A stretch of 64,000 bases of DNA from contig JAYRFV010000065.1 in the NCBI GenBank assembly GCA_041908165.1, forward strand, positions 11,954-75,953, read 5' to 3'. Position numbers and translations under genes: made by a program. The notes below the pieces were generated by a model, which searched no databases, had not been told where the DNA came from, and saw only the letters and a list, made by a program, of their open reading frames with translations. Positions 4,830 through 44,744 of the stretch are shown in pieces. Source of the stretch: Holophagales bacterium (GTDB lineage: Bacteria; Acidobacteriota; Holophagae; Holophagales; Holophagaceae). Every line of letters begins with the position of its first letter. Position 1 is the first letter of the stretch.

Positions 4830-5839
<1,010 letters not shown>

Positions 5840-13247: not shown

Positions 13248-13313
13248 ATATTTTTTGTTTGAATAAGCATTCGTGATGGAATCCGCAATGCGGATGGGAC
13301 TGGAGGATCCCCG

Positions 13314-24368: not shown

Positions 24369-24526
24369 GGAACCTCCTCGGGCCGCTGCGCCGGCCCCCG
24401 CAGCGTACAACAGTCGCCAGGGGCGCCGAACGCCGGTATCGTTTCCTCGATGGCCTCGGATCCTGCCCAGCCGCTCCGGAGCACCTCGCCTGGAGGCTCC
24501 ACCCGGGCCCCGCAACGGGGGTCCCG

Positions 24527-25546: not shown

Positions 25547-25551
25547 AGCCC

Positions 25552-26436: not shown

Positions 26437-26438
26437 GC

Positions 26439-27725: not shown

Positions 27726-28855
27726 CCGGCGGCGGGCGGCTCGCCTCCCTGGACGCCTTCCGCGGCCTCGCCATCGCCAGCATGGTGCTGGTCAACAACC
27801 CGGGCAGCTGGAGCCACGTCCACGGCCCCCTGGCGCACGCCGCCTGGAACGGCTGCACCTTCACCGACCTGGTGTTCCCCTTCTTCCTGTTCGCCGCCGG
27901 GCTGGCGATGACGATCTCCCTCGGCCGCCGGGCCGGAACCGGGCGGGACCGCCCTGCCCTGTACCGCGGCCTGGCCCGCCGCGCCGCGGTGATCTTCCTC
28001 ATCGGCCTGGGCCTGAACCTGATCTCCTCCTTAAGCTTCGCGACCCTGCGGGTGCCCGGCGTGCTGCAGCGGATCGCCCTCGCCGTCGTCCTCGCCGCGC
28101 CGGTGGTGATCTGGGGACGCTGGCGGGTGGCCCTGGCCGCCATCGCGGCGCTCACCGCCGCCTGGCTCCTGCTCATGCTGGCGGTGCCGGTGCCCGGCGC
28201 CGACGGCGTCGTCGCCGCGGGCCGCCTCCAGCCGGGCATGGATTTCGGCGCCTGGCTGGACCGGACGGTCCTGCCCGGCCACCTCTGGGCCAGCGCCCGG
28301 ACCTGGGATCCGGAGGGCAGCGTCGGCACCCTCACCGCCACGGCCAGCCTGCTGTTCGGCGTCCTGGCCGGGCGCTACCTGGAAGCACCGCAGGGAGCGC
28401 TGCGCAAGTCCCCCGGCCTGCTGCTGGCCGGACTGGCGCTGCTCGGTCTGGGCGCCGGGCTGGCCCGGCTGGGGCTGCCGTTGAACAAGAGCTTGTGGAC
28501 ACCCTCCTACACCCTGTTCACCGCCGGCTGGTCGGCCCTGTTCCTGGCGCTCTTCCACGCCGCCCTCGACGAGGCGCCGGAAGCCTTCCGCACCGCCGCC
28601 CGCCGGGCCTGCCTGCCGTTGACCATCTACGGCATGAACGCCCTGTTCCTGTTCGTCCTCTCCGGGCTCGTCGGCCGGCTGCTCCAGGCCCTGCGGGTTT
28701 CCGGCCTGCCCCTCAAGCAGCGGCTGTTCGACGCCCTGGCGGCCCTGCCCCTGGCGCCCGAGAACGCCTCCCTGCTGTTCGCCGTGCTGTTCAACCTGGT
28801 CATGTTCGGGGTCGCCTGGTTCATGTGGAGGAAGCGGTGGTTCGTGAAGGTCTGA
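27722..28855 (+). CDS. Integral-membrane acyltransferase, heparan-alpha-glucosaminide N-acetyltransferase-like (DUF1624/DUF5009)
   Basis: RLASLDAFRGLAIASMVLVNNPGSWSHVHGPLAHAAWNGCTFTDLVFPFFLFAAG. GTG at 27722 overlaps the ampG stop (GTGA). Confidence 0.75.
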   Translation: MTGGGRLASLDAFRGLAIASMVLVNNPGSWSHVHGPLAHAAWNGCTFTDLVFPFFLFAAGLAMTISLGRRAGTGRDRPALYRGLARRAAVIFLIGLGLNLISSLSFATLRVPGVLQRIALAVVLAAPVVIWGRWRVALAAIAALTAAWLLLMLAVPVPGADGVVAAGRLQPGMDFGAWLDRTVLPGHLWASARTWDPEGSVGTLTATASLLFGVLAGRYLEAPQGALRKSPGLLLAGLALLGLGAGLARLGLPLNKSLWTPSYTLFTAGWSALFLALFHAALDEAPEAFRTAARRACLPLTIYGMNALFLFVLSGLVGRLLQALRVSGLPLKQRLFDALAALPLAPENASLLFAVLFNLVMFGVAWFMWRKRWFVKV

Positions 28856-30369: not shown

Positions 30370-30376
30370 GGTCGCA

Positions 30377-31297
30377 GTGGATCCCCGCCCCGCCCCGCCG
30401 CCCCTCGCCCTCGGAATCGACGCCGGCGGCACGGCCACCCGCTGGGCCCTCGCCGGCCCTTCGGCGACGATCCTGGCCGAGGGCGAGGTTCCCGGGTTCA
30501 GCGCCCTGGAGTTGCAGGGCCCCGGGCGCGAGCGGATCCGGGCCCTGCTCCAGGACCTGGCCGCGGCGGCCGGCACCCACGGCCGGCCGGGGCGCGCCCA
30601 CGCCGGCCTGACCGGGCTCGGAGCGGTCGACAGCGACCTGCCCGACTGGTTCGCCGGGGCCCTCGGGCTGCCCGCGGGGACGGTCACCCTGGGGGGCGAC
30701 CTGGAAACCACCTACCGGGACCTGTTCGCTCCCGGGGAGGGCTACGTGGTCTACGCCGGCACCGGGTCCGTGGCGGTCTTCATCGACGCGGAGGGCGCCC
30801 TCCACCGTGCCGGAGGCCGCGGCAACCTCCTCGACGACGGAGGCGGCGGGTTCTGGATCGCCCGGGAGGCCCTGCGCAGGGTCTGGCGCGCCGAGGACGA
30901 GCGGCCGGGCAGCTGGGAGTCCTCTCCCCTGGCCCGGGCCCTGTTCGACCAGATGGGGGGCGCCGACTGGGACTGCACCCGCCGGATCGTGTACGGCGGC
31001 GGCCGGGGGGAAGTGGGCCGCCTCGCCCTGGCGGTGGCACGGGCCGCCGCCGAGGACCCCGCCGCGCTGGGGAGCCTGCAGGCCGCGGGCGCGGAGCTGG
31101 CCCGGCTCGCCCAAGCCCTGGTGGGCCGCTACGGGCCGCGTCCGGTGGCGCTCACCGGGCGCGCCGCCGGCCTGCACCCCGCGATCGAGACGAACCTGAA
31201 GGCCGCCCTGCCCGCCGGGCTCCCCTTCAGCCACCGCCCGAGCCGCGGCCACCACGCCGCCGCCCGCCTCGCCCTGCGTGCCGGAGCCCAGCCATGA
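30377..31297 (+). CDS. BadF/BadG/BcrA/BcrD-type sugar kinase (GlcNAc/MurNAc kinase-like)
   Basis: LALGIDAGGTATRWAL, VVYAGTGSVAV, GGRGNLLDDGGGGFWIAREAL. Confidence 0.8.
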   Translation: MDPRPAPPPLALGIDAGGTATRWALAGPSATILAEGEVPGFSALELQGPGRERIRALLQDLAAAAGTHGRPGRAHAGLTGLGAVDSDLPDWFAGALGLPAGTVTLGGDLETTYRDLFAPGEGYVVYAGTGSVAVFIDAEGALHRAGGRGNLLDDGGGGFWIAREALRRVWRAEDERPGSWESSPLARALFDQMGGADWDCTRRIVYGGGRGEVGRLALAVARAAAEDPAALGSLQAAGAELARLAQALVGRYGPRPVALTGRAAGLHPAIETNLKAALPAGLPFSHRPSRGHHAAARLALRAGAQP

Positions 31298-32085
31298 GAC
31301 CCTCCAGCCTCGTCCCGGTCCTGGCCGCCATCCTGGCCCTGGGCTGCAGCCGCGGGCCGCGCATCGACTACGTCATCCCGGCGAAGAGCCAGGACAGCCG
31401 CGTGCAGTACCTGATCCTGCACTTCACCAACGAGGACTGGGAGTCGGCGATCCGGATCCTGGCCCACGGCAAGGTCAGCAGCCACTACCTGGTCCGCGAC
31501 CGGCCCGCGGAACTCGCCCGCCTGGTGGAGGAGGACCGGCGCGCCTACCACGCCGGCGTCAGTTCCTGGAAGGGCGACACCAACCTCAATGCGGCCTCGA
31601 TCGGCATCGAGATCGTCAACCGCGGCGACCTTCCCGACGCGGCCGGCAACCTCTATCCCGAGTACCCGGAGGCCCAGGTCCAGCTGGTCATCGGCCTGGT
31701 CAAGGACATCATCGTGCGCCACCGCATCCGCGGCGACCGGATCCTCGGCCACAGCGACATCGCGCCGCTGCGCAAGGTCGATCCAGGGCCGCGGTTCCCC
31801 TGGAAGCGGCTCGCGGAGGAAGGCCTCATCCCCTGGCCGGATGCCGCCGCCGTGGCCGCCGCGCGGCCCGCCTTCGAGGCCGCCCTGCCGGACGTCTCCT
31901 GGTTCCAGGCGAAGCTCGCCGAGCACGGCTTCGGCATCGCCCGCAGCGGCGCGCTGGACGAGGCCACCCGGCGCACCCTGGCGGCCTTCCAGATGAAGTA
32001 CCGCCCGGCCCGGTACGACGGCCAGCCCGACGCCGAGACCGCCGCCCTGCTGCAGGTGCTGACGGCCCCGGCCAGCCGCCCGTGA
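31294..32085 (+). CDS. amiD: N-acetylmuramoyl-L-alanine amidase (amidase_2, AmiD/AmpD type) lipoprotein with C-terminal PG-binding domain
   Basis: Lipobox LALGCS. HYLV...AYHAGVSSW...IGIEIVN...ILGHSDIAPLRKVDPGPRFPW. C-terminal LDEATRRTLAAFQMKY repeat. Confidence 0.85.
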   Translation: MRPSSLVPVLAAILALGCSRGPRIDYVIPAKSQDSRVQYLILHFTNEDWESAIRILAHGKVSSHYLVRDRPAELARLVEEDRRAYHAGVSSWKGDTNLNAASIGIEIVNRGDLPDAAGNLYPEYPEAQVQLVIGLVKDIIVRHRIRGDRILGHSDIAPLRKVDPGPRFPWKRLAEEGLIPWPDAAAVAAARPAFEAALPDVSWFQAKLAEHGFGIARSGALDEATRRTLAAFQMKYRPARYDGQPDAETAALLQVLTAPASRP

Positions 32086-32090: not shown

Positions 32091-32116
32091 AAACCGGGGG
32101 GAGGTCCCCCCGGTTT
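32091..32116. terminator. Bidirectional rho-independent terminator between convergent amiD and the TonB receptor
   Basis: aaaccgggggg-agg-tccccccggttt: perfect GC-rich hairpin flanked by A-run and T-run. Confidence 0.8.
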
Positions 32117-32134: not shown

Positions 32135-35068
32135 TCAGTACTGGAACCGCACGCCCAACTGGAAGCGGCGGGGGGACCAGAAGGACTGCAGCGCCATGAA
32201 GTTGGCATTGTTGGCCAGGCTCTGGACGTTGTAGCCGGTCTGCTTGTTGAAGACGTTGAAGCAGTCCGCCATAACCTCGATCCGGACCGCCTTCTTGACC
32301 AGGAAGGCCTGGGTGTACTTCAGGTCCATCTGGTAGTGGGAATCGGTCCGGCGAGAACCGGCCGGCTCGGCATAGCGGTTGGTGTCGCCGGTGGTGTAGC
32401 TGCTGCCGATCAGGGGCAGGTAGGGGGTGACCGACTGGATCTGCCAGGGCTGTCCGGACTGGTAGATCACCCACGCGCCGACCTGGGCGTTCCAGGGCAG
32501 GTTGTAGTTGGCCATCAGCTTCAGCAGGTGGCGCCGGTCGCCGGTGAGGTTGCCGTACTTGTTGTCCCAGATCTGCCGGCCGGGATCGTCGCCGATGTTC
32601 GAGGATCCGATGAACAGGTTGGCGTCGTTGCCGGTGGGCGTCGACGTGCTGTCCTGGTCGAAGTTGCCGTAGTAGTGGCTCCAGACGTAGGAGCCGCGGA
32701 AGTAGGCCTTCTCGCCGCGCCACTCGGCCTCGAGCCCGGCCTCGTAGTACTTGGTGAAGGCGCCCTGCATGTGGGCGATCACGAAGCTGCTGCCGCTGCC
32801 GATCTGCGCCAGCTTGGCGGTCAGGTCGGGGATGTACAGTTCGCGCGGGATGCCGTCCGGGGGATTGAAGGCCACCCGGGCGTTGTTGTTGGTGTCCTCC
32901 CAGAAGTTGTCGCTGTACCGGTAGCGCCCGTACAGACGGCCGGACCAGCCGCGGCCGAAGTCCTTGGTGGTGCCGACCAGGTACTCGTCGATGGCGCGGG
33001 GCTTCAGTCCGGCCTGGAACAGCTTGCCGGAGGAGGAGGCCTCCGGGGTGGAGCCGATGAAGATCCCGTTCGCGTCGAAGTAGGCATTGACCGTCGTGGC
33101 CTTGTTGCGCGCCCAGGAGGCGGCGCGAGGCAGCGAGGAGGCGGCCGGAACGTAGCGCGCGTAGTTGGCGTAGATGCTGTCCTGGCCGCGGTAGTTCCAG
33201 GTCACCCCGATGCGCGGCTGGAAGGTGTCCTTCCACTTGATCTCGTGCATCAGGTACTTGTTCCCGGGCGCCGCCACGAACCCGGAGAGGGCGTACGCAT
33301 CCCGCCGCAGGCCCTGGCCGTAGAGTTCGTCGTCGCTCATCAGGAAGCCGACGTTGAAGGTGAGGTCCTTCCAGCGGATCTTGTCGTTGACCTCGAAGTT
33401 GTAGGACACGTACTCGGACAGGATCGGCGGGACGCCGAGGATGCCCTGCTGCTGGACCTGGGCCTGGAAGATGGCGGTCTTGCCGTTGACCACCAGCGGC
33501 GTGGAGCGGAACGGGATGGACACGGCGCCCCAGCCGTTGGAATAGCGGTAGAGCTCTTCCCGGTCCTTCGACCACATGTACCCGAGGTGCAGTTCGTGGG
33601 TGACGGTGGACCCGAAGACCAGGTCGTAGGTCAGCTGCCAGCTCTGGCGGTAAAAGTCGTCGTTGTCGAACAGGGAGTTGGCGCCCACCAGGCCGCCCCC
33701 GTTGGTGTTGCCGGGGTAGCTGTAGGTGGCGATGTAGGGGGCGACGAGGGCGTTGTAGGCGATCTGCGCGGCGGTGAGGGTCGTTCCGGTCTGCCGCGTG
33801 GGCACGGTGAAGGCGCCCATGGTGTTCAGGGCACTGATGTTCAGGTTGACGCTGCCGTCGAGGGCCGGCTTGAAGCCGAGGATCGTATCCGGCGTCGCCT
33901 GGGTCTTCAGCCCGTAGTCGGTCATCTTGAAGTTGAAGAAGCTGTTGGGCGTGACCGACCAGGTGCCTTCGAGGATGCCGATCTCCTGGGTCGACTTGCC
34001 GCCGGTCCCCGCGGAGGGCTGCGTCGTGCCGCCGATGCTGTAGTGGCTGTACTTGCGGTCCGAGTTGCGGTAGCTGGCGTTGATCAGGATGTCGGAGGTG
34101 GGAGCCCAGGTGAGCTTGGCGAAGTACTCGTTGCGGGTGCTGTTCAGGTTCGGGACGTCACCGTAGACGTTCGACCGGTTCTGCTGGTCGAGGGTGGGCC
34201 GGTAGTAGGAGACGAAGAAGAACAGGTGCTCCTTCAGGATCGGGCCGCCGACGTGGCCCTGGAGGTAGGTGAGCGACTGCTCGTAGACCGAGAGGCTGAT
34301 CGTGGTGCGCTTCGCCACCCAGCTGTCCGGCATGACCTGGTAGGACAGCGCACCGGTGAAGGTGTTGGTGCCGGACTTGCTCACCGAGTTGACGGTGAAG
34401 CCCGCGGACCGGTTGAAGTCGGTGGCGGCGGCACCGCCCTTGCTGATGGCGATCTGGTCCATGTCGTGGGTCGCCGGTTCCGCCGACAGGGTGCCGAACA
34501 GCGGCAGGTTCACGTTGACGCCGTCGAACTTGTAGACGTTGTCCTGGCCGCTGCCGCCGGCGCTGGGGCCGCGCACGGCATCCTGGGTGTGCTGCACGCC
34601 CGGGATCAGCTTGAGCAGGTCGCGGTAGTCGTGGCCCACAGGCAGGCTGTTCATGACATCGGCACTGATGGCCGTCTTCAGCTCCGAGGAGGTGCGATCC
34701 ACCAGGTTGGCCTGGGCCACCACCTCCACCTCGGCGCCGGCCACCTGGGCCTCCGAAAGGGTGACGTTGAGCGCGGTGTTCTGCTGGAGCAGGACTTCGG
34801 CGCTGCGCTTGGCGGGCATCATGCCGCTCTGGACGAAGGTCAGGGTGTAGGTGCCCGGGGGAAGGAAGGGCAGCCGGTACTCGCCGTTCTCGCCGGTGAC
34901 CACCTTGCGGGGCTGGGGCAGGACGTTGGAGGCCGCCTCGATCTGGACGCCCTTGAGGGCGCGCCCGTTCTTCGCGACCACCTTGCCGACGATGGCACCG
35001 GTCTGCTGGGCGAAAGCCGGGAGGGCCACCAGGATGACCGCCAGGGAACCCCAGTTCCTTCTGTTCAT
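32135..35068 (-). CDS. TonB-dependent outer-membrane receptor with N-terminal carboxypeptidase-regulatory-like domain
   Basis: Signal MNRRNWGSLAVILVALPAFAQQ. GAIVGKVVAKNGRALKGVQIEA...GEYRLPFLPPGTYTL. Long beta-barrel ending ...QLGVRFQY. Confidence 0.9.
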   Translation of the reverse strand: MNRRNWGSLAVILVALPAFAQQTGAIVGKVVAKNGRALKGVQIEAASNVLPQPRKVVTGENGEYRLPFLPPGTYTLTFVQSGMMPAKRSAEVLLQQNTALNVTLSEAQVAGAEVEVVAQANLVDRTSSELKTAISADVMNSLPVGHDYRDLLKLIPGVQHTQDAVRGPSAGGSGQDNVYKFDGVNVNLPLFGTLSAEPATHDMDQIAISKGGAAATDFNRSAGFTVNSVSKSGTNTFTGALSYQVMPDSWVAKRTTISLSVYEQSLTYLQGHVGGPILKEHLFFFVSYYRPTLDQQNRSNVYGDVPNLNSTRNEYFAKLTWAPTSDILINASYRNSDRKYSHYSIGGTTQPSAGTGGKSTQEIGILEGTWSVTPNSFFNFKMTDYGLKTQATPDTILGFKPALDGSVNLNISALNTMGAFTVPTRQTGTTLTAAQIAYNALVAPYIATYSYPGNTNGGGLVGANSLFDNDDFYRQSWQLTYDLVFGSTVTHELHLGYMWSKDREELYRYSNGWGAVSIPFRSTPLVVNGKTAIFQAQVQQQGILGVPPILSEYVSYNFEVNDKIRWKDLTFNVGFLMSDDELYGQGLRRDAYALSGFVAAPGNKYLMHEIKWKDTFQPRIGVTWNYRGQDSIYANYARYVPAASSLPRAASWARNKATTVNAYFDANGIFIGSTPEASSSGKLFQAGLKPRAIDEYLVGTTKDFGRGWSGRLYGRYRYSDNFWEDTNNNARVAFNPPDGIPRELYIPDLTAKLAQIGSGSSFVIAHMQGAFTKYYEAGLEAEWRGEKAYFRGSYVWSHYYGNFDQDSTSTPTGNDANLFIGSSNIGDDPGRQIWDNKYGNLTGDRRHLLKLMANYNLPWNAQVGAWVIYQSGQPWQIQSVTPYLPLIGSSYTTGDTNRYAEPAGSRRTDSHYQMDLKYTQAFLVKKAVRIEVMADCFNVFNKQTGYNVQSLANNANFMALQSFWSPRRFQLGVRFQY

Positions 35069-35240
35069 GCGCAACTCCTTAGTTAGAGGGGGGGGTGGGT
35101 TCAAGCGTTTCAAACACGCGGGCTGTGGAGGGGTTGTCGCGAGTGTACAGCGTTCATGCGGCGGTGCCTACGCCTACTCGGGCAGCGCCGGGGCGTTCCC
35201 GCGCATAGGCCCGGAAACAGGCAAGCGATCGGCGACTCCA

Positions 35241-36725
35241 TCAGCCGGCGGTGCCGGACGGCCCGCCTCCCCGAAGGATCCGGCAGGCATTGCCCACACA
35301 CAGCGTCGCGGCGCAGCCGATCAGGGTGTGCCAGGTGAAATCGATGCGGGTGAAGGCCAGCACCAGGATCATGGCCAGCAGTCCCCCGATGAACCCCAGG
35401 AGCGCATCGATCAGGCCCGTGCGCGGAAAGAAAAGGCCCAGGAAGAAGGTCCCGAGCAGGCCTCCGTAGGTGAAGGAGGCGATCTTCAGGCCCAGTTCGA
35501 CCACCGGATTGCGCGTATCGGTGAACAGCAGCGCGCCGCCGATCAGGAGGGCGCCCCAGAGCAGCGTGAACAGGCGGGACCAGCGCACCTGGCCTCGCTC
35601 GTCCAGGTTCCGGCCCCGGTCCGTGGACTTGAACAGGTCCAGGAAGGTGGAGGAGGCCAGCGAACTGATCGAGGAGGACAGGGTGCCCATGGCCGAGGCC
35701 AGCACGCCGGCCACCACCAGCCCCGCCAAGCCGGTCGGCAGGTTCTCGACGATGAACTTGGGAAACACCTCGTCGGAGGACTTCAGGCCCAGCTGCGCCA
35801 AGCTGGCGCCGCCGTAGTAGGCGTACAGGCACAACCCCAGCACCAGGAAGAAGGCGAACTGGACGACGATGAAGGCGGCGTCGAGGATCAGCGCGCGCTG
35901 GCTCTCGGCGCGGTTTCGGCAGCCCAGCAGCCGCTGCACCAGCATCTGGTCGGTGCCGTGGGAGGCCATGGTCAGGAAGGTCCCACCCAGCAGCCCGCCC
36001 AGCAGCGTGTAGGGGGTGGCGAGGAAGTCCAGGATTCCGCCCCCGCCGCCAAGGTTGACCAGGGCGAACTTGTCCTGCCCGCCGGCCCGGGCGAAGGCCG
36101 CCACGTCGGCCCAGCCGTGCGGCAGCCGGTGCAGGATCAGGACCATCGCGGCCGCCGCGCCGCCCAGGTAGATGAACAGCTGCACCACGTCCATGGCCAC
36201 CACCGCCTTCAGCCCGCCCAGGTAGGTGTACAGCAGCGTGAAGCCGCCGATCAGCAGGATGCTGGCCGGGTAGTCCAGGCCGGTGATCAGGTGCACAGGG
36301 ATGGCGGTGGCGAACAGGCGGACGCCCGAGGCCAGCACCCGGGTGACGATGAACACGCTGGAGGTGAACTTCCGCAGCGGCAGGCCGAAGCGCCGGCCGA
36401 GGAAGTCGTAGGCAGTCTCCAGGTCGCCGCGGTGGTAGGCCGGGATGAACACGGCGGCGACGATCAGCCGTCCGATGAAATAGCCCACCGCCAGCTGGAG
36501 GAAGTGCAGGTTGCCCCGGTAGGCCAGGCCCGGGATGCTGATGAAGGTGAGGGTGCTGGTCTCGCTGGCGACAATGCTGAAACCCACCGACCACCACGAA
36601 AGCTGCTTGCCGCCCAGGAAATAGTCGCGGGGGCTCCTCTGCCGCCCGGAGATCAGGATCCCGGCAACGGTCACGCCCACCAGGTACAGGGCGACGATGG
36701 CATGGTCGAGGAAGGTGAATCCCAC
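35241..36725 (-). CDS. Sodium:solute symporter (SSF) family transporter
   Basis: MGFTFLDHAIVALYLVGVTVAGILISGRQRSPRDYFLGGKQLSWWSVGFSIVASETSTLTFISIPG. About 13 TM. Confidence 0.88.
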   Translation of the reverse strand: MGFTFLDHAIVALYLVGVTVAGILISGRQRSPRDYFLGGKQLSWWSVGFSIVASETSTLTFISIPGLAYRGNLHFLQLAVGYFIGRLIVAAVFIPAYHRGDLETAYDFLGRRFGLPLRKFTSSVFIVTRVLASGVRLFATAIPVHLITGLDYPASILLIGGFTLLYTYLGGLKAVVAMDVVQLFIYLGGAAAAMVLILHRLPHGWADVAAFARAGGQDKFALVNLGGGGGILDFLATPYTLLGGLLGGTFLTMASHGTDQMLVQRLLGCRNRAESQRALILDAAFIVVQFAFFLVLGLCLYAYYGGASLAQLGLKSSDEVFPKFIVENLPTGLAGLVVAGVLASAMGTLSSSISSLASSTFLDLFKSTDRGRNLDERGQVRWSRLFTLLWGALLIGGALLFTDTRNPVVELGLKIASFTYGGLLGTFFLGLFFPRTGLIDALLGFIGGLLAMILVLAFTRIDFTWHTLIGCAATLCVGNACRILRGGGPSGTAG

Positions 36726-36750: not shown

Positions 36751-37494
36751 TCAGCCGCCGGACTGGAGGCGGTTGAGCTTCGCCTCGAGGTTGTGCAGGA
36801 TCCGCAGGTCGAGAGGGTCCAGCTGGTCGGCCTTCTCGCCCCGGTAGTGCAGGCGGAAGGCGCGGATGGTCGCGGTCCGGTCCTTGAGGCTGTACCCGAT
36901 GCGCAGCAGGGCCCGGTCCGCGTCGAAGCCTGTAGGCGGCTCCGGCGGGTCCAGGTCCGGCCACAGCCCGAAGCCGCGCTCGGCCAGGCGGCGCCAGGGG
37001 AACAGCCCGCTGGGATCGCTCTTCCGCACCGGCTCCACGTCGGCGTGGCCCACCACCTGGTGCGGCGGGATCCGGTGCCGGCGTGTGAGGTCCTCCAGCA
37101 GCACCAGCAGCCGGTCGATCTGCACGTCCGGGAAGGGCTCGAACCCGTTGTTGTCCAGCTCGATGCCCACGGAGAGGGAATTGATGTCCCGGTAGGGCCC
37201 CCAGGTCCCGGTGCCGGCGTGCCAGGCCCGCTGGTCCTCGCTGACCAGCTGGGCGAGGCGGCCGTCGCGCCCGATCAGGTAGTGGGCGCTCACCGGGCCG
37301 CCGTCGTTGCGGGTCTGCAGCAGCTTGAGGGCGCCTTCGAAGGTGTTCCCGGCGGTGTGGTGCAGCACCACCAGCAGCGGCCGGCGCGGGTTGAAGTTGG
37401 GCGAGGGCAGCCATTCCGCCAGGGGATTGCGCGGCGGCCGGCAGGCCGCCAGCGCCAGCAGCAGGAGGGCGGCCAGCGGCCGGGCCGGCCTCAC
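36751..37494 (-). CDS. Second amidase_2-type N-acetylmuramoyl-L-alanine amidase lipoprotein
   Basis: Lipobox LALAAC. VVLHHTAG...SAHYLIGRDG...AWHAGTGTWG...SVGIELDNNG...VVGHADVEPVRKSDPSGLFPW. GTG at 37494 overlaps the upstream stop (GTGA). Confidence 0.85.
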   Translation of the reverse strand: MRPARPLAALLLLALAACRPPRNPLAEWLPSPNFNPRRPLLVVLHHTAGNTFEGALKLLQTRNDGGPVSAHYLIGRDGRLAQLVSEDQRAWHAGTGTWGPYRDINSLSVGIELDNNGFEPFPDVQIDRLLVLLEDLTRRHRIPPHQVVGHADVEPVRKSDPSGLFPWRRLAERGFGLWPDLDPPEPPTGFDADRALLRIGYSLKDRTATIRAFRLHYRGEKADQLDPLDLRILHNLEAKLNRLQSGG

Positions 37495-38858
37495 CGCGTC
37501 GGCCCCGCCGCCCCGGCCCGGCGGAACAGGTCGGCGTAGTCGCCGCGGCGGCGGATCACCCTGGCCCGGTCGCCCTCCACCAGCACCTCGGCCGGCATCG
37601 GCCGGGCGTTGTACTCGCTGGCCATGGAGAAGCCGTAGGCGCCGGCGTCCAGGATCGCCACCAGGTCGCCGGCCTGGGCCCTGGGCAGGGTGCGGCCCTC
37701 GGCCAGGATGTCGCCGGTCTCGCAGACATCGCCGGCGATGTCGACCTTGACGGGGTCCTGGGTCCGGCCGATCACCCGCACCCGGTGGTAGGCCTGGTAC
37801 ATGGCCGGCCGCATCAGGGTGTTGAAGCCGGCGTCGACGTTGACGAAGGTCTTCAGCGGGGTCTGCTTGACGGTGTTGACCCGCACCAGCAGCGTGCCGG
37901 CGCCGCCGACGAAGAAGCGGCCGGGTTCCAGCCACAGGGTCGGCTCGTAGCCGGCGGCGGCGACGCCCTCCTTCCAGATCGGCTCGAGGGCCGCAGCCAG
38001 TTCCTCCGGGGACATGACCTTCTGGCCGTCCTGGTAGGGGATGCCGATGCCGCCGCCGAGGTCGAGGAAGGCCAGCTGGATGCCCAGCTTGTCCTTCAGC
38101 TCCTTGACCAGGCCGAGCATCTTGCGGGCGGTCAGCTGGTAACCCTCGGCCTCGGTGATCTGCGAGCCGATGTGGCAGTGGGCGCCTTCGATGCGGATCT
38201 CGGGCATGGCCTTGGCCCGCTCGTAGGCCTTGAAGGCGAGCCCGCCCTCGAGGTGCAGGCCGAACTTGGACTCGGCGATGCCGGTGTTGATCTGGTGGAT
38301 CGTGTGCGGGTCCACCCCCGGGTTGACCCGGAAGGAGATGCGCGCCGTCTTCTTCTGCCGGCGCGCCTCGGCCTGCACCTGGCCCAGTTCGTCAAGGGAA
38401 TCCACGTTCAGCACCGTGCCCAGCTCGATGGCGCGGCGCAGCTCGCCGGGCCCCTTGGAGGAGGACGTGAACATGATCTCCGGGCCCTTGTAGCCCACCC
38501 GCAGGGCGGTCTCGATCTCGCCCTGGGAGACCACCTCGGCGCCCAGCCCCTCGGCCCGCAGCAGGCCGATGATGGCCGGGTTGGTGTTGGCCTTGAGCGC
38601 GTACAGGATCCGCAGCTTGGGGAAGCGCGGGGCGAAGGCCTTGCGCAACGCCGCCGCCTGGCCCTGGATGTGGGCCTGGTCGTAGACGTAGAGCGGCGTG
38701 CCGTGGGCCTTCGCCAGGCGCTGGAAGGCGGCGGCGACGCCGGGCTCGCCGGCGCGGTCGGCGCGGGCCGCCTGCAGGGCGTCGTGAAGGGTGGGGGCCT
38801 GCGCGGCCAGGGGCAGGACGAGCAGGAGTGCGGCGAGGGGGAGGCGGCGAAGGGGCAC
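37491..38858 (-). CDS. Diaminopimelate decarboxylase-like PLP enzyme (Orn/DAP/Arg decarboxylase fold III) with signal-peptide-like N-terminus
   Basis: TPLYVYD, YALKANTNP (PLP Lys), CHIGSQI, GGGIGIPY, EPGRFFVG, CETGD, YGFSMASEYNARP. N-terminus (GTG start, read as M) PLRRLPLAALLLVLPLAAQA precedes the conserved core by about 35 aa. GGAG lies 8 nt upstream of the start. Confidence 0.85.
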   Translation of the reverse strand: MPLRRLPLAALLLVLPLAAQAPTLHDALQAARADRAGEPGVAAAFQRLAKAHGTPLYVYDQAHIQGQAAALRKAFAPRFPKLRILYALKANTNPAIIGLLRAEGLGAEVVSQGEIETALRVGYKGPEIMFTSSSKGPGELRRAIELGTVLNVDSLDELGQVQAEARRQKKTARISFRVNPGVDPHTIHQINTGIAESKFGLHLEGGLAFKAYERAKAMPEIRIEGAHCHIGSQITEAEGYQLTARKMLGLVKELKDKLGIQLAFLDLGGGIGIPYQDGQKVMSPEELAAALEPIWKEGVAAAGYEPTLWLEPGRFFVGGAGTLLVRVNTVKQTPLKTFVNVDAGFNTLMRPAMYQAYHRVRVIGRTQDPVKVDIAGDVCETGDILAEGRTLPRAQAGDLVAILDAGAYGFSMASEYNARPMPAEVLVEGDRARVIRRRGDYADLFRRAGAAGPTR

Positions 38859-38877
38859 GGGGGTCTCCGAGGTGGGT

Positions 38878-40290
38878 TCAGTTCGGACGCAGGTCGTCGG
38901 GCATGCCCCAGGCCGCCCGGGCCAGGGCGAAGGCAGGCAGCGGGACCTGCACCAGCCGCGGCTGGCGGGCGGGGTCCAGCCAGCGCAGGAGCTCGAGCAG
39001 GTCCCCGGCGGTCAGGGCGGTGCAGCCCGCGGTGGCGAGGCCGGGGGGCACCGCCACGTGAAGGAAGATGCAGCTGCCTGCCCCGGGCCGCGGCCGCGTG
39101 TCGTTGTAGTGGATCACCACCATGTGCCGGTAGTGCTCGCTGTCCAGCAGCAGGTGCTCGGCGGAGCGCCAGGTCACCGGTGCCTGGGCGGAAGGCAGCC
39201 TGAGGAGGCGGTTGTAGTCGGGGTGGTCCGGGTCGTCGACGCAGCGGTCGCAGTCGGTGGCCCGGCGGTAGGCCAGCCGGATGCCGGCCGGCGCCTGCTC
39301 GGCGTAGCCCCACAGGTCGCCGAAGGCCATCACCCCGGCCGGTGAACGGCCGTCGCCCTCGCGCTTGACGGGTCCTTCGGCGGCGGGCGGCGGGGCCCCC
39401 TCGTCGCTGCGCCAGGCCATGCCCTGCTTACCGACCCACACCGCCATCGGCGGACCCACCTTGGCCAGCACCCCGTCGGACGTGCGCTCGAAGCGCTGGA
39501 GGGTGCCGGCGCTGGCATTCCAGTCGGCGGTGGTGACCAGCAGCACCTGCCCCGCCCGGGACAGCTCCGGCGCCGGCCGGCCGATGGCATCGAAAGCCAG
39601 GTTCAGAACCGGGTAGCGGGCGCCGAGGGGGTGGTCGTAGTGCCACCACTCCTCCTTGTCGACGCTGAACCCTTCGGCCTCCATCGCGGCGCGCAACAGG
39701 TCGCGGTGGCGGCGGGCGGCCTCGGATCCGCCGGAATAGGCCGGGTGGGCCTTCGGCGAGAAGTCGTCGTAGGCGCTGGGCATCTCCACGTCGGCGCCGT
39801 CCGCCAGCCGGACCAGGCTGAGGTCCACCGCGCAGCCGCGGTTGTGCACCGAGCCCTTGGCCGGATTGGCGACGTAGGCGCGCTTGGCCGGTTCGGTGGC
39901 GTCCCAGAACACCCGGGTCACCCACCAGGGCCGGTAGGCGTCGTGGATGCGCAGGGCGAAGCCCTGGGCGCGCAGGGCCCGGTTCGCCCGCAGCACCGCC
40001 GCGGCCACCGGCCGCTGCAGGAAGGCCCGGGCCTCTGCATAGACCGGGGCGCCGAGGAAGTTGTCCTTGCCGGCATAGCGGATGTCCAGCCGCAGGGTGG
40101 CGTCGAGGGCGGCGAGGTCCACCAGGTCCGGGGCCAGCAGGCCCGCGGGCTGCGCCGGGGGGGCCGCCCGCCGGGCCTCGGCGATCAGCGCCGGCAGCGG
40201 CCGCGGCTGGAAGCCCGGGGGGTCCGCCCGGGCCGCCAGGACGGCGAGAAGGACCGGGAGAAGGCGCAGGGCCGGCATCGGGAGCCTCAT
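38878..40290 (-). CDS. Exported fusion: VanX/DdpX-type D-Ala-D-Ala dipeptidase (M15D) + L,D-transpeptidase-fold (YkuD-like) domain
   Basis: Signal MRLPMPALRLLPVLLAVLAARA. N-domain DAYRPW, SVHNRGCAVD, EWWHYD. C-domain (about 38881-39558) GSCIFLHV....TAGCTAL. Confidence 0.8.
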   Translation of the reverse strand: MRLPMPALRLLPVLLAVLAARADPPGFQPRPLPALIAEARRAAPPAQPAGLLAPDLVDLAALDATLRLDIRYAGKDNFLGAPVYAEARAFLQRPVAAAVLRANRALRAQGFALRIHDAYRPWWVTRVFWDATEPAKRAYVANPAKGSVHNRGCAVDLSLVRLADGADVEMPSAYDDFSPKAHPAYSGGSEAARRHRDLLRAAMEAEGFSVDKEEWWHYDHPLGARYPVLNLAFDAIGRPAPELSRAGQVLLVTTADWNASAGTLQRFERTSDGVLAKVGPPMAVWVGKQGMAWRSDEGAPPPAAEGPVKREGDGRSPAGVMAFGDLWGYAEQAPAGIRLAYRRATDCDRCVDDPDHPDYNRLLRLPSAQAPVTWRSAEHLLLDSEHYRHMVVIHYNDTRPRPGAGSCIFLHVAVPPGLATAGCTALTAGDLLELLRWLDPARQPRLVQVPLPAFALARAAWGMPDDLRPN

Positions 40291-41420
40291 TCGCAGATCC
40301 TCCGGACGCGCCGGTGCAGGGCGCAGGTGACCTCGTAGGTGATGGTGCCCAGCAGCCGCGCCGTGCCCTCCACCGAGTTCGGCGGGCCAGGATCACGGCT
40401 CAGCAGCACCATGCGATCGCCGGGGTGGACCGGGACCTCCGGCGGCAGGGCCACGGTCATGGAGTCCATGGAGATCATGCCCACCACCGGATACAGGGCG
40501 CCGTGGAAGCCCGCCACGGCGCGGCCGGCCAGGGCCCGGGGGAACCCGTCGGCGTAGCCGCAGGCCAGGGTGGCGATCTGCACCGGCGCCGAGGCGACGA
40601 AGCGCCCGCCGTAGCCCACCGGGGTCCCGGCCGGCACCCGCACGGCGCGGAACACTTCCGCCTCCAGCTGCAGGATCGGCCGCAGCCCGGCGGCCTCGGC
40701 CCGGTCCGCCAGCCCGTACAGGGCGATGCCGGGCCGGACGTGGGTGTCGCCCTCGGTGAAGCCGCGCAGGCAGGCGGCGCTGTTGGCGTGGTGGACCTGC
40801 GGCGGCGCGAGGCCGGCATCGGCGAGCTGGGCCCGGGCTTCCAGGAACCGGCGCCGCTGCTCCTGCGACACCGAAGGGTCGGCATCGTCGGCCGAGGAGA
40901 AGTGGCCCATCAAGCCCCGCAGCCAGGGCCGGACGGTGCGCAGCAGGTCCAGGCAGGCTCCGAGTTCGGGCAGCAGCAGGCCGGACCGCCCCATGCCCGT
41001 GTCGAGCTTCAGCTGCAGGTCCACCGGGTGCCGGGGAAGCAGGTCGGCCAGGTCCCGCAGGTGGTCCGCCGAGACGACGGTGAGGTCCAGGTGGTGCGCG
41101 GAGGCCACCGGCAGGTCCTCGCCGGACAGGCCGCCGAACACCAGGATCCGGCCGCCGATCCCGGCCGCGCGGAGTTCCAGGGCCTCGGCCAGGGTCGCCA
41201 CGCAGAAGCCCGCGACGCCGGCCTCCGCCAGGGCCCGGGCCACCGGGACGGCCCCGTGGCCGTAGGCATCGGCCTTCACCACCGCCAGGAGGCCGAGCCC
41301 GCCCGCCGCCCGCCGCAGCGCGGAGAGGTTGTCCACCAGGCGGCCGAGGTCGATCCGGGCGACGGGCGCCCGGCCGGCCTGAACCGCGTCCGCGGCGGGG
41401 ATCGAACCGTTCGGAACCAT
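40287..41420 (-). CDS. alr: Alanine racemase
   Basis: LAVVKADAYGHGAVPVARAL (PLP Lys motif). 377 aa. No signal peptide. ATGA overlap with the downstream gene. Confidence 0.92.
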   Translation of the reverse strand: MVPNGSIPAADAVQAGRAPVARIDLGRLVDNLSALRRAAGGLGLLAVVKADAYGHGAVPVARALAEAGVAGFCVATLAEALELRAAGIGGRILVFGGLSGEDLPVASAHHLDLTVVSADHLRDLADLLPRHPVDLQLKLDTGMGRSGLLLPELGACLDLLRTVRPWLRGLMGHFSSADDADPSVSQEQRRRFLEARAQLADAGLAPPQVHHANSAACLRGFTEGDTHVRPGIALYGLADRAEAAGLRPILQLEAEVFRAVRVPAGTPVGYGGRFVASAPVQIATLACGYADGFPRALAGRAVAGFHGALYPVVGMISMDSMTVALPPEVPVHPGDRMVLLSRDPGPPNSVEGTARLLGTITYEVTCALHRRVRRICE

Positions 41421-41569: not shown

Positions 41570-42463
41570 ATGAGAACCGCCGTCCTGCGCGCCGTCCTGC
41601 TGGGGATCCAGTTGCTGGCCGGCGTCCGCCCGCTCCACGGGGCCGAGGCGCCCGCCCACGTGGTGGTGCAGGCGGTGGTGAACCTGCATGCCAAGCCCAG
41701 CGCCGAGGCCGAGGTGGTCAGCCAGGCCCTGCTCGGCGCCCGGCTGCTGGAACTGGAGCGCGACGGCGGCTGGGCCCGGATCAAGGCCGAGGACGACTAC
41801 CTGGGCTGGGTTCCGCTGTCCGCCCTGCGTACCCTGGAGGGCGCCGAGCGCTACCCGGCCTCGCTGGAAGCCGGCAAGGTGGTCGAGGTCGACGCCCTGG
41901 CCGCCAACATCTTCGCCGAACCCACCGTCACCCGGCGGGCCCCGCTGCTGACCGCGCCCTTCGGCGTGCGCCTGGAACGCGACCCCAGCCCCAAGGACGG
42001 CAAGCGCTGGCTGCAGATCCGTCTGCCCGACCGCCGCAGCGCCTGGATCCAGTCCGGGGACGTCCGCACCGACCTCCGGCCGCTTAGCCTGGATGCCTCC
42101 CTGCTGCTGGCCCGGCGCTTCCTGGGGGTCAACTACACCTGGGGCGGCACCTCCAGCTTCGGCTTCGACTGCTCCGGCTTCACCCAGACCATCGTCCGCA
42201 GCCGCGGCGTGCTGATGCCCCGCGATGCACGCGTCCAGGCGGCCTGGTCCGGCCTGGCCGAAGTGGCCGACCGCGCCGACCTGCGGCCGGGCGACCTGCT
42301 GTTCTTCCGCGAGACCTCGCCGGCCATCTCCCACACGGGGATCTACCTGGGCGAGGGCCGGTTCATCCACGACAGCACCAGCCAGCGCCCCTGCGTGCAG
42401 ATCTCCGAGCTGTCGGAGCCCGGCTGGTCCAAGTCCCTGGTGGCGATGAGGAGGCTCAAATGA
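41570..42463 (+). CDS. Exported SH3b + NlpC/P60 gamma-D-glutamyl-(L-Lys/mDAP) endopeptidase (YkfC-like)
   Basis: Signal MRTAVLRAVLLGIQLLAG. Two SH3b-like segments. YTWGGTSSFGFDCSGF (catalytic Cys) and ISHTGIYLGEGRFIH. Confidence 0.85.
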   Translation: MRTAVLRAVLLGIQLLAGVRPLHGAEAPAHVVVQAVVNLHAKPSAEAEVVSQALLGARLLELERDGGWARIKAEDDYLGWVPLSALRTLEGAERYPASLEAGKVVEVDALAANIFAEPTVTRRAPLLTAPFGVRLERDPSPKDGKRWLQIRLPDRRSAWIQSGDVRTDLRPLSLDASLLLARRFLGVNYTWGGTSSFGFDCSGFTQTIVRSRGVLMPRDARVQAAWSGLAEVADRADLRPGDLLFFRETSPAISHTGIYLGEGRFIHDSTSQRPCVQISELSEPGWSKSLVAMRRLK

Positions 42464-43587
42464 ACCGACGGGAAGCCCTCCAGGCCCTGGCCGCGGGCAG
42501 TGTGGGCGGTTCCCTGCTGGGCCGCGCGGGACGGTCGGCGGACACCCCCGGTGCCCCGCCCCCGGTCGCGTTCAGCACGCGCATCCGCCGGCTGGAGCTG
42601 CGCCACGCCTGGACCACCACGATGTCCACCAGCGCCCACCGGGACACCCTCCACGCCGAGTACACCCGGGACGGGATCACCGGCTACGGCGAAGGCGCCG
42701 GCATCGTCCGCTACAGGCAGAACGCCGCCGACGGCCAGCGTGCGCTGGAGCCCCTGAAACCGCTGCTGCTGGCCGCGGACCCGTGGAAGCTGGAGAGGCT
42801 CTGGGCCGAACTCGACCGCCGCCTGCCGGGCCAGCGCGCCGCCCTGGCGGCGGTGGAACTGGCGCTGATGGACTGGCGCTGCAAGAAGCTGGGGATCCCG
42901 CTGTACCGGTTCTTCGGCCTGGACCCCGCCGACGCCGCGGTCACCACCATGTCGATCGGCATCGACACGCCGGAGCTGACCCGGCAGAAGGTCCGCGAGG
43001 CCGAAGCCTTCCCGTTCCTCAAGATCAAGGTCGGGCTGGCCTCCGACGAGGCGACCCTCGACGCCGTCCGCAGCGTCACCCGCAAGCCGCTGCGGGTGGA
43101 CGCCAACGAGGGCTGGACCTCCAAGGAGGAGGCGGTCCGCAAGATCAACTGGCTGGAGAGCCAGGGCGTGCAGTTCATCGAGCAGCCCATGCCCGCGGCC
43201 ATGATCGACGAAGCGCGCTGGGTGCGCAGCCGCGTGCACATCCCCATTTTCGCCGACGAGGCCTGCCATTCGGCGGAGGACATCCCCAGGCTGCGCGAGG
43301 CCTTCGACGGCATCGTCGTCAAGCTCGACAAGTGCGGCGGCCTGCTGGAGGCCCACCGCCAGATCACCGTGGCCAAGGCGCTCGGCATGAAGACCATGAT
43401 CGGCTGCATGGTGTCCAGCTCCTGCACGGTCACCGCGGCCGCCCACCTGACGCCGCTGGTGGACTATGCCGACCTGGACGGCCATCTGCTCATCGCCAAC
43501 GATCCCTACGCCGGGGTCGGCGTGGAGCGCGGCAAGCTGATCCTGCCCGGCGCCCCGGGACTCGGCGTCCGACTGCTCAAGCCCTGA
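42460..43587 (+). CDS. L-Ala-D/L-Glu (dipeptide) epimerase, enolase superfamily, with Tat-like N-terminus
   Basis: MNRREALQALAAGSVGGSLLG, then enolase-superfamily core: FLKIKVG, LRVDANEGW, FIEQP, FADEAC, VVKLDKCGG. Overlaps the upstream gene by 4 nt, as in the ykfB/ykfC pairing. Confidence 0.8.
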   Translation: MNRREALQALAAGSVGGSLLGRAGRSADTPGAPPPVAFSTRIRRLELRHAWTTTMSTSAHRDTLHAEYTRDGITGYGEGAGIVRYRQNAADGQRALEPLKPLLLAADPWKLERLWAELDRRLPGQRAALAAVELALMDWRCKKLGIPLYRFFGLDPADAAVTTMSIGIDTPELTRQKVREAEAFPFLKIKVGLASDEATLDAVRSVTRKPLRVDANEGWTSKEEAVRKINWLESQGVQFIEQPMPAAMIDEARWVRSRVHIPIFADEACHSAEDIPRLREAFDGIVVKLDKCGGLLEAHRQITVAKALGMKTMIGCMVSSSCTVTAAAHLTPLVDYADLDGHLLIANDPYAGVGVERGKLILPGAPGLGVRLLKP

Positions 43588-43601: not shown

Positions 43602-44744
43602 ATGAACCCGATGCGCCGCCGCTCCTTCCTCCGCCGCCTGCTCCTCGGGCTGCTGCTGGTCGCCCTGCCCCTCCCGCTCCAGGCCCAGGAGCGGTTCCTG
43701 GACGCCCCCAGGCCGGCGAAGGACGGCCCCCGCCTGGTGGTGTTCAATCCCACGGTCTACAACATCCGCTGCCTGGCGGCCCTGCGCCGGCTGGCGATCC
43801 TGGACGTCCCGGGGCTGACCGTGATCGGCGTCTACCACGTCCGCCAGCGGGAGGACTTCGCCGCCGCCGAGCGGCACGCCCGCGACGCCCGGCTGGACTG
43901 GTTCCGCTTCCACGCGGTCTCGGCTCCGGTGGGGGAGGCCGACCTCTGGCGCGCCAACGCCTGCACCCCGGAATTCCAGGCGGTCGTGCAGAAGGCCGAC
44001 GGAGCCATCTTCTTCGGCGGTCCCGACATCCCTTCCGGGATCTTCGGCCAGAAGACCCACCTGCTGGCGAACATCGAGGACCCCGTACGCCACCACCTCG
44101 AACTGTCCGCCCTCTTCCACCTGCTCGGCGGCGCCCAGGATCCGGCCCGCACGCCCCTCCTGGCGGACCGACCGGCCTTTCCGGTCCTGGGCATCTGCCT
44201 GGGCTTCCAGAGCCTCAACGTCGCCACCGGCGGCACCCTCGTCCAGGACATCCCCACCGGGATCTACGGCCTGTCCTACGTCGAGGACATCCTCGCCCAG
44301 GACCCCGAGCAGTGGCACGCCAATCCGCACCGGCGGCTGCACCCCCTGGACAGGCTGATGCCGCAGAGCTACCACTCCCTGAACCTGGGTCCACAGGGAC
44401 GGATCTTCCCGGCCCTGGGCTTCGGCGCAGGCGACCACCCGCGGGTGCTCAGTTCGCACCACCAGGCCCTGGGCGCCCTCGGCCAGGGCTGGTTCGCCAC
44501 CGCCACGTCCCGCGACGGCAGGGTGATCGAGGCGATCGAGCACCGCCGCTTCCCGAACGTGCTGGGCGTGCAGTTCCACCCCGAGCATCTCCAGCTGTGG
44601 GATGCCTCGGCTCCGGTCCGGCAGCGGCCTGGCGAGGCCCCGACCAGCCACCCCGCCCTCCTCGCCGGCGCCCCCCGCAGCCTGGAGTTCAACCAGGCGA
44701 TCTGGAAATGGCTGGGTGCCCGACTGCGCGAGGCCCGGAAGTAG
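43602..44744 (+). CDS. Peptidase C26 / class-I glutamine amidotransferase-like gamma-glutamyl hydrolase with signal and ~130 aa N-terminal extension
   Basis: MNPMRRRSFLRRLLLGLLLVALPLPLQAQE. VLGICLGFQSLN (Cys), SSHHQAL, GVQFHPE (His). Confidence 0.78.
   Translation: MNPMRRRSFLRRLLLGLLLVALPLPLQAQERFLDAPRPAKDGPRLVVFNPTVYNIRCLAALRRLAILDVPGLTVIGVYHVRQREDFAAAERHARDARLDWFRFHAVSAPVGEADLWRANACTPEFQAVVQKADGAIFFGGPDIPSGIFGQKTHLLANIEDPVRHHLELSALFHLLGGAQDPARTPLLADRPAFPVLGICLGFQSLNVATGGTLVQDIPTGIYGLSYVEDILAQDPEQWHANPHRRLHPLDRLMPQSYHSLNLGPQGRIFPALGFGAGDHPRVLSSHHQALGALGQGWFATATSRDGRVIEAIEHRRFPNVLGVQFHPEHLQLWDASAPVRQRPGEAPTSHPALLAGAPRSLEFNQAIWKWLGARLREARK

Follow-up and report, generated by a model that had tools for sequence, protein, structure and literature searches.

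Can a diaminopimelate (DAP) decarboxylase act outside the cytoplasm? This question is raised by a lysA gene in a 64,000-nucleotide stretch of DNA from a Holophagales bacterium (contig JAYRFV010000065.1, positions 11,954 to 75,953 of the forward strand; the whole stretch is called the window below, and all coordinates refer to it). DAP decarboxylase, the LysA protein, is regarded as a housekeeping enzyme that serves biosynthesis in the cytoplasm, and also as a target for antibiotics. The LysA of the window begins with a predicted signal peptide of the general secretory (Sec) type and is encoded among exported wall-digesting enzymes. Because a genuine-looking export signal and an operon of this kind come together, the conversion of DAP to lysine probably takes place outside the cytoplasm, and we consider it likely that in this bacterium, a member of the Geothrix/Holophagaceae group of Acidobacteriota, a Sec-exported LysA decarboxylates peptidoglycan-derived free meso-DAP to L-lysine in the periplasm. 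Extracytoplasmic conversion of meso-DAP had been proposed in an earlier reading made from the DNA letters alone (the sequence-only reading), and it was supported by all in silico tests: the forced start codon, the conserved leader, the AlphaFold model and the exported partners agree with each other.

Start codon and leader of LysA

The lysA open reading frame (37491..38858, minus strand) encodes 455 amino acids and starts with GTG. The open frame 5' of codon 1 holds no earlier ATG, GTG or TTG, and the next in-frame start codons are a TTG at codon 71, a GTG at codon 109 and an ATG at codon 129, all of them 3' of the first conserved strand, TPLYVYD (residues 54-60). As no canonical start lies between codons 1 and 71, the leader is unavoidable for any ATG, GTG or TTG start and the GTG start codon is forced, in line with the earlier statement that no internal start precedes the conserved core. 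An independent gene call picked the same start on a metagenomic contig of identical sequence (Logan SRR26835459). A Shine-Dalgarno-like GGAG was read from the sequence upstream of the GTG, as reported before, with a spacing of 6 nt in place of the 8 nt given then.

The N-terminus of the protein consists of MPLRRLPLAALLLVLPLAAQA followed by PTLHD. Its n-region contains an RR pair (R4, R5), the h-region reads LAALLLVLPL, and the best 10-residue Kyte-Doolittle window scores 2.9, so that the hydrophobic h-region of the sequence-only reading was recovered. For comparison, we assembled the target and its 120 best homologs (65-97% identical, n = 121) from Geothrix, Mesoterricola, other Acidobacteriota, Riflebacteria and Ozemobacteraceae. 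An extension ahead of the conserved TLH(D/E)(A/G)L helix was found in 103 of the 121 sequences. Nearly all of these leaders have a 10-residue Kyte-Doolittle window of at least 2.0 (98/103; median 2.64) and a Lys or Arg in the n-region (99/103), and the usual leader ends in AQA or AQV a few residues ahead of the helix. In an alignment of 60 sequences, the leader columns showed majority identity only at hydrophobic positions, and the mature part contained about 120 invariant columns. The leader sequence drifts with its properties kept, which points to the mode of evolution of a signal peptide.

The leader heuristic was also applied within the LysA family as a whole, to the approximately 150 nearest representatives at 50% identity. 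No more than four were positive, namely P0093 from this clade, P0185 (a fragment from the clade), P0122 from a clade with leaders for twin-arginine translocation (Tat), and P0164, a repeat artefact. Judged by this comparison of sequences, the leader in this clade is more than chance. It is also closely similar to the leader of the TonB receptor encoded in the same operon, MNRRNWGSLAVILVALPAFAQQ; because this receptor must be Sec-exported, its leader serves as an internal positive control.

Among the 103 leaders, no more than 31 contain RR and four fit a Tat-like motif, which argues for Sec and not Tat as the predicted export route of LysA. The RR pair, already noted as lacking a canonical Tat motif, therefore appears to be incidental. 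In an AlphaFold model based on the 60-sequence alignment (mean predicted local distance difference test (pLDDT) 89, predicted template modelling score 0.88), residues 1-20 had pLDDT values of 54-59, values of at least 95 were reached from residue 21, and most of the chain beyond the leader was at 90 or higher. In this model, the hydrophobic segment would lie outside the predicted fold.

Three other explanations of the N-terminus were considered and rejected. Tat export of the target was dismissed with a non-conserved RR pair and the reading L-R-R-L-P-L, which does not conform to the Tat motif. A role of the hydrophobic segment as a component of the fold was dismissed on account of its low pLDDT and its variable length and sequence, and a lipoprotein signal because the leader contains no Cys.

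Two candidate cleavage sites are present, LAA↓QA (19/20, with P16 at -4) and AQA↓P (21/22). Most orthologs read AQA↓AKP or AQV↓AKP. In E. coli, Pro at +1 blocks signal peptidase I. Cleavage at AQA↓P would place Pro at this position, so LAA↓QA is at least as likely to be used. Of the textbook AXA site that had been claimed for this leader, the AQA is there, but the Pro at +1 is disfavoured and LAA↓QA is an equally good site.

The leader could also be an annotation artefact, with translation starting at a downstream non-canonical codon and the protein remaining in the cytoplasm. Several CTG codons do lie in frame inside the leader, and the NCBI start for the G. oryzisoli ortholog is an internal Met that yields 428 amino acids (P0044). 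Against this stand the lack of any ATG, GTG or TTG before codon 71, the correct spacing of GGAG from codon 1 and the maintenance of the leader properties in about 100 divergent homologs. Moreover, a manual count found G or C at the third position in 19 of the 21 leader codons, similar to the remainder of the gene (gene-wide third-position GC 0.97), and the Tat motifs of sister clades are not explicable by accident. We therefore regard an artefact as highly improbable.

Gene calls of some orthologs start further downstream. The public 428-residue call for G. oryzisoli SG189 (L019, P0044) begins at the internal Met, with the DNA encoding an entire leader, VSIRRLSLALLLSLPGLHAQVAKP. In two further orthologs (P0007 and P0037), the gene calls begin at a GTG within AQVAKP. 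Such choices of a downstream start hide the signal peptide in databases.

Enzyme identity and predicted substrate

Direct reading of the sequence recovered every motif that had been listed before: beside TPLYVYD these are ALKAN with K89, HIGSQ (229-233), GGGIG (268-272), EPGR (311-314), CETGD (379-383) and SEYNARP (414-420). The lysA equivalog model TIGR01048 (EC 4.1.1.20) scored 455.3 bits against a cutoff of 297.9, and the match spans residues 44-446, corresponding to profile positions 15-414 of 417. Pfam returned PF02784 (Orn_Arg_deC_N, 3.6e-55) and PF00278 (Orn_DAP_Arg_deC, 6.9e-25). The protein has the two-domain architecture of fold-type III enzymes, with a TIM-barrel domain for pyridoxal phosphate (PLP) and a C-terminal beta-sheet domain. 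The Ala_racemase_N match was marginal (24 bits), and the Ala_racemase_C domain of Pfam was not matched. The model for DokD (NF052544) was failed with 187.5 bits against a cutoff of 700, and the models for FslC, SpeA and NspC scored far under their cutoffs.

The best sequence matches in the PDB were two DAP decarboxylases, from A. aeolicus (2p3e, 4e-84) and M. jannaschii (1twi, 3e-82). A Foldseek search with the model likewise gave DAP decarboxylases for all of the 14 best matches, with template modelling scores of 0.75-0.93.

Among 60 homologs, K89, H229, G268-G270, E311-R314, R350, Y354, C379, E380, T381 and D383 are invariant. They include the PLP-binding set of the Schiff-base lysine K89, the HIGSQ histidine H229 and the GGG loop G268-G270. 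R314, R350, Y354, C379, E380 and T381 align with the same motifs of 2p3e and 1twi. We take these six residues to match, by motif, R303, R344, Y348, C375, E376 and S377 of the M. tuberculosis enzyme, which hold the distal L-centre carboxylate and amine of DAP or lysine. In terms of motifs, the six are the EPGR arginine, the arginine and tyrosine of RPxxY, and CE(S/T) contributed by the partner subunit, with roles assigned after the M. tuberculosis and M. jannaschii structures. Because the residues of this L-centre pocket are invariant, free meso-DAP is most likely the substrate. By family and intact active site, the protein appears to be a true LysA-type meso-DAP decarboxylase.

The peptidoglycan operon and the proposed pathway

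On the minus strand, the genes are ordered alr, a VanX/YkuD-like fusion, lysA, an Amidase_2 lipoprotein, a symporter and a TonB receptor (Table 1). The alr stop overlaps the start of the fusion gene by 4 nt, a gap of 19 nt separates the fusion gene from lysA directly downstream of it, and the amidase GTG overlaps the lysA stop by 4 nt (GTGA). The independent gene call gives the amidase a length of 247 amino acids. A scan of the locus for sigma-70 promoters found none.

Table 1. Coordinates of lysA, its export and translation signals and the surrounding genes in the window.
Feature	Position	Strand	Basis or remark
lysA open reading frame	37491..38858	minus	455 aa, GTG start
Shine-Dalgarno-like GGAG	38865..38868	minus	ahead of lysA GTG; read from sequence
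Predicted Sec-type signal peptide, MPLRRLPLAALLLVLPLAAQA	38796..38858	minus	lysA codons 1-21
Mature LysA-type meso-DAP decarboxylase (predicted)	37491..38795	minus	residues 22-455 and stop; Pfam, TIGR01048
Alanine racemase, first operon gene, no signal peptide	40287..41420	minus	TIGR00492, 275 bits (cutoff 168)
Exported VanX-type D-Ala-D-Ala dipeptidase (M15) with YkuD-like C-terminal domain	38878..40290	minus	PF01427, 1.7e-29
Amidase_2 lipoprotein (AmpD/AmiD-like amidase for N-acetylmuramic acid (MurNAc)-L-Ala), lipobox LAAC	36751..37494	minus	PF01510, 9e-34
Sodium:solute symporter (SSF), candidate importer of amino-acid products	35241..36725	minus	PF00474, TIGR00813
TonB-dependent outer-membrane receptor with CarboxypepD_reg domain, last operon gene	32135..35113	minus	Pfam; synteny conserved
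Terminator-like GC hairpin and T-run just after the receptor stop	32097..32111	minus	likely operon end
Exported NlpC/P60 endopeptidase with YkfC-type SH3 (gamma-D-Glu-DAP endopeptidase type), divergent	41570..42463	plus	PF00877, PF18348
Enolase-superfamily dipeptide epimerase (L-Ala-D/L-Glu epimerase-like), Tat-type leader MNRREALQ	42460..43587	plus	MR_MLE_N, MR_MLE_C
Exported Peptidase_C26 (gamma-glutamyl hydrolase-type)	43602..44744	plus	PF07722; leader here and in orthologs
Amino-sugar half of the island: GH3, SIS, AmpG-like major facilitator superfamily transporter, GHL10, BadF/BcrA-type kinase, Amidase_2 + PG_binding_1 lipoprotein	23343..32085		Pfam

According to the sequence-only reading, lysA lies between an amidase lipoprotein and a fusion of VanX with an L,D-transpeptidase. 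Both neighbours are in place, with the transpeptidase part to be called YkuD-like only: against the Pfam YkuD model, the C-terminus of the fusion reached 19 bits (E 0.002), under the gathering cutoff of 23.4. This domain shares 37% identity (E 2e-13) with the YkuD domain of P0090, a homolog described below, in which the same model scored 51 bits.

Export signals extend to nearly all partners. Sec leaders are kept in the orthologs of the VanX fusion, of the NlpC/P60 endopeptidase and of the C26 peptidase, the lipobox of the amidase is conserved among orthologs, and the epimerase motif M(K/N)RRE(L)(F/L)Q is invariant in all Holophagaceae orthologs (L001-L019). The orthologs of alr are leaderless like the gene product in the window. 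As Sec, Tat or lipoprotein signals are retained throughout the partners and only Alr is without a leader, LysA would be one step in a wholly exported pathway.

The arrangement is also stable. The order C26-epimerase-NlpC on one side and alr-VanX-LysA-amidase on the other is shared by 19 Holophagaceae loci and by Geothrix sp. 21YS21S-2, and the NlpC/P60 gene is syntenic in Holophagaceae. VanX lies upstream of LysA in 19/19 Holophagaceae loci and the amidase downstream in 16/19, with two others cut by contig ends. In the complete genome of Geothrix sp. 21YS21S-2, the ortholog is flanked by the same amino-sugar set, and HGSNAT and a fusion of beta-lactamase with a NamZ exo-muramidase are encoded nearby. 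An SSF gene follows a LysA homolog in the distant locus L020 as well.

Three further observations concern the genes around this operon. The epimerase scored 126 bits with NF011708 (cutoff 343) and 205 bits with DgcA (cutoff 400); L-Ala-D/L-Glu-epimerase-like enzymes are canonically cytoplasmic, and this one is apparently Tat-exported, as predicted from its leader. A 476-residue protein (44769-46199, minus strand) matches the Pfam family Asp_Glu_race (2e-12) and has a Sec-like leader, MRLATHIPRCFLAACLLLPALA followed by QDP; possibly, an exported enzyme resembling glutamate/aspartate racemases is encoded here, at the margin of the island. Finally, an apparent branched-chain amino-acid cluster (4826-13612, minus strand; ilvC, ilvN, ilvB, leuD, leuC, leuB and leuA-like, recognized by open reading frame sizes and N-termini) is unrelated.

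From the gene content, we infer a stepwise degradation of murein peptides. The TonB-dependent receptor would import muropeptides across the outer membrane, the amidase lipoproteins would detach the stem peptide from MurNAc, and the VanX/YkuD-like fusion would trim off the D-Ala residues. The YkfC-like NlpC/P60 endopeptidase could then cleave the gamma-D-Glu-meso-DAP bond, with L-Ala-D-Glu being processed by the Tat-exported epimerase and the C26 peptidase. The freed meso-DAP would be decarboxylated at its D-centre by periplasmic LysA, yielding L-lysine and CO2. The resulting ordinary amino acids might be taken up via the co-transcribed Na+/solute symporter, and the leaderless, hence cytoplasmic, alanine racemase would handle D-Ala.

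Catabolism of murein peptides is known from ykfABCD of B. subtilis and from MpaA, YcjG, PepD and LysA of E. coli, where the freed DAP goes to LysA. The chemistry comprises an LD-carboxypeptidase, a gamma-D-Glu-DAP endopeptidase, an L-Ala-D/L-Glu epimerase and a dipeptidase. The island in the window would have this chemistry in common with these pathways, with YkfC-type SH3 plus NlpC/P60 domains and an MR_MLE epimerase. In contrast to the core enzymes of E. coli, which are cytoplasmic, almost all enzymes here carry export signals, including the epimerase (Tat) and LysA (Sec). In addition, the island is coupled to a TonB-dependent receptor, and the role of the LD-carboxypeptidase would be filled by the YkuD-like domain in place of an LdcA/YkfA-type enzyme.

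A different role would follow if the enzyme were the only LysA of the organism. It would then either carry out the last step of lysine synthesis in the periplasm, with re-import of the product, or act partly as a cytoplasmic precursor, and salvage would be secondary. The 64-kb window contains no second copy, the homolog search returned no Geothrix paralog with at least 65% identity, some exported homologs have housekeeping-looking neighbourhoods, and the nearest leaderless relatives are ordinary LysA proteins of other organisms. A scan of contigs for a second leaderless lysA with query-specific peptide patterns recovered orthologs and, from other taxa, distant LysAs, but nothing else, and 20 leaderless cluster representatives that were looked up came from Methanolinea, Elusimicrobiota, Bacteroidota, Verrucomicrobia and Planctomycetota, with no Holophagae among them. 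On the other side, the operon around the gene is catabolic, with hydrolases and a TonB receptor encoded in it, and the gene offers no internal start for a cytoplasmic isoform. Exporting DAP and re-importing lysine would also be wasteful. These considerations weaken the idea by inference only. We hold a sole, primarily biosynthetic LysA to be unlikely and prefer periplasmic salvage of DAP.

Putatively exported homologs and related enzymes

Leaders on LysA are found beyond the Holophagaceae. More distant Sec-bearing homologs (50-72% identity) occur in other Acidobacteriota, Thermoanaerobaculia, Riflebacteria and a metagenome-assembled genome (MAG) of the Planctomycetaceae, and some of them adjoin a NamZ/beta-lactamase fusion, a GH3 gene, a TonB receptor or an SSF transporter. 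In P0090 (L085, 488-2341), a single protein of 617 residues combines a signal peptide, LysA and a C-terminal YkuD domain of the L,D-transpeptidase fold, and its gene adjoins those of an epimerase and a YkfC-like endopeptidase. YkuD-type domains act outside the cytoplasm. The fusion would tie the activities of LysA and YkuD together.

A search with a Bacteriovoracaceae homolog retrieved a second family, consisting of approximately 18 clusters with Tat leaders, approximately 35 with Sec leaders and a few leaderless ones. The Tat motifs in Bacteriovoracaceae-like MAGs and their relatives read RRSFFE, RRDFFK, RRKFFK, RRNFFK and RRQFMQ (members L037, L040, L041, P0304-P0320, P0327 and P0122). One of these, P0316, abuts a peptidoglycan glycosyltransferase (Transgly) gene and an SLT/LysM gene. 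In the Bacteriovoracia ortholog in L039 (8232-9536), the Tat leader and the TPLYVYD strand are absent in frame, which may reflect an assembly error or a disrupted gene.

These homologs bear on the question whether the exported LysA acts on peptide-bound meso-DAP, as in tripeptides, muropeptides or uncross-linked sacculi, and thereby edits stem peptides before or instead of their full hydrolysis. YkuD-type domains work on stem peptides at the position of DAP, and one is encoded adjacent to LysA in the window and fused to it in P0090. The D-centre of uncross-linked DAP has a free amine and a free carboxylate, as such a reaction would need, and the neighbours of P0316 are again wall-related. However, R314, R350, Y354, E380 and T381, which in solved DAP decarboxylases hold the amine and carboxylate of a free L-centre, are all invariant, the target has the full LysA equivalog score, and an endopeptidase that frees DAP is already part of the operon. 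Peptide-bound DAP is thus an improbable substrate, and we assign a similarly low probability to the broader idea that exported LysA-like enzymes, including the Tat-dependent ones of Bacteriovoracaceae-like predators, turn meso-DAP stem peptides into the lysine type in the periplasm. If this were true, the change from meso-DAP to lysine would amount to an editing of the cell wall after its synthesis, or of muropeptides from prey or other foreign cells, that was not known before.

The second Sec clade (P0321-P0368, for example L035 and L088; Acidobacteriota and Riflebacteria) is marked by a TGRFSH motif after the leader and by YNSF(L/Y)LP in place of the canonical YNxRP. In P0324, an MR_MLE epimerase gene follows directly. 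The altered motif may indicate a change of specificity in this clade. A shift of the exported enzyme in the window to D-Lys, D-Orn or another wall-derived D-centre, with loss of DAP as substrate, would find parallels in this motif and in the fold that is common to the family member DokD. The target, however, retains YNARP and all DAP-binding residues, and it passed the LysA model where it fell far short of the one for DokD, so we consider such a shift very unlikely; free meso-DAP is the substrate that we favour.

Not all close relatives have a leader. A leaderless subgroup of 436 residues (L084/P0103, P0101-P0119) from Thermoanaerobaculia-like MAGs is approximately 67% identical to the target, retains the N-terminal helix of the mature protein and has GH3 and NamZ genes as neighbours. 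Its members resemble a cytoplasmic form of this salvage enzyme. In a neighbour-joining tree calculated without support values, this subgroup is nested in the Sec clade, which tentatively suggests a secondary loss of the leader. Archaeal-type LysAs are the nearest outgroups.

Several points weigh against periplasmic salvage of DAP. The leaderless subgroup indicates that a cytoplasmic location is compatible with the function of this enzyme, and the exported homologs of Riflebacteria (P0107) and Bacteriovoracaceae (L037, L040) have no peptidoglycan genes nearby. Cys228 and Cys379 of the catalytic site would face an oxidising periplasm. The unfavourable Pro at +1 that would result from cleavage after AQA leaves the real cleavage site uncertain. 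If the genome had no second, leaderless lysA, the enzyme would serve lysine biosynthesis rather than catabolism alone, or serve both.

Compared with the cytoplasmic LysA proteins of M. jannaschii (1TWI), A. aeolicus (2P3E) and H. pylori (2QGH), the target shares the two-domain PLP architecture of the alanine-racemase fold and the catalytic and DAP-binding residues, and its model superposes with template modelling scores of 0.8-0.9. It differs in the predicted 21-residue Sec signal peptide, in residues 24-52, which form a two-helix segment where many canonical LysAs have a different N-terminal sequence pattern, and in the position of its gene in a peptidoglycan-catabolic operon and not among lysine-biosynthesis genes. 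The nearest functionally distinct relative is DokD (Salmonella STM2360; 6N2H). It has the same fold and also decarboxylates a D-centre; in contrast to DokD, the target has retained the arginines and the tyrosine for binding of the distal DAP carboxylate.

N-terminal targeting extensions are also present in the LysA of plants and diatoms (Arabidopsis 6N2A/6N2F, annotated as chloroplastic; Phaeodactylum 7JPJ), where they target the protein across membranes to the plastid. These are eukaryotic transit peptides on a biosynthetic enzyme, whereas the extension described here is of the bacterial Sec type and the proposed role is periplasmic salvage.

Export of a PLP enzyme had been called unusual in the sequence-only reading; for the alanine-racemase fold, it is not unprecedented. 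BsrV of Vibrio cholerae and its relatives are alanine-racemase homologs that also use PLP, reside in the periplasm and work near peptidoglycan peptides (PMC7890096). The Bsr racemases show that such a fold can function after export. BsrV is a racemase making D-amino acids for wall remodelling, and the target would be a decarboxylase serving DAP salvage. After Sec export, LysA would have to acquire its PLP in the periplasm, as BsrV likewise must (PMC7890096). The LysA of the Tat clade could instead travel folded with its cofactor.

Our literature search turned up no account of a DAP decarboxylase that is exported, periplasmic or Tat-dependent, a result that, given the incomplete coverage of the search, is absence of evidence only. 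The enzyme family is known and its chemistry is probably unchanged. What appears to be new is the compartment, the occurrence of both a Sec and a Tat form, the wide extent of the clade and the place of the enzyme in an exported pathway of murein-peptide catabolism. Taken together, the sequences point to an exported clade, with Sec or Tat leaders, in Acidobacteriota, Riflebacteria, Planctomycetota and Bacteriovoracaceae-like bacteria and to a repeated linkage with peptidoglycan hydrolases. Automated annotation labels all these proteins plainly as diaminopimelate decarboxylase.

If LysA is exported as proposed, it would be a second example, after the Bsr racemases, of a periplasmic PLP enzyme with the alanine-racemase fold, and metabolic reconstructions that score this gene as lysine biosynthesis may be wrong. 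Some bacteria would then mineralise the peptide part of foreign or recycled wall in the periplasm, making the poorly transported DAP into lysine before uptake, which would bear on the turnover of necromass in soils, sediments and sludge.

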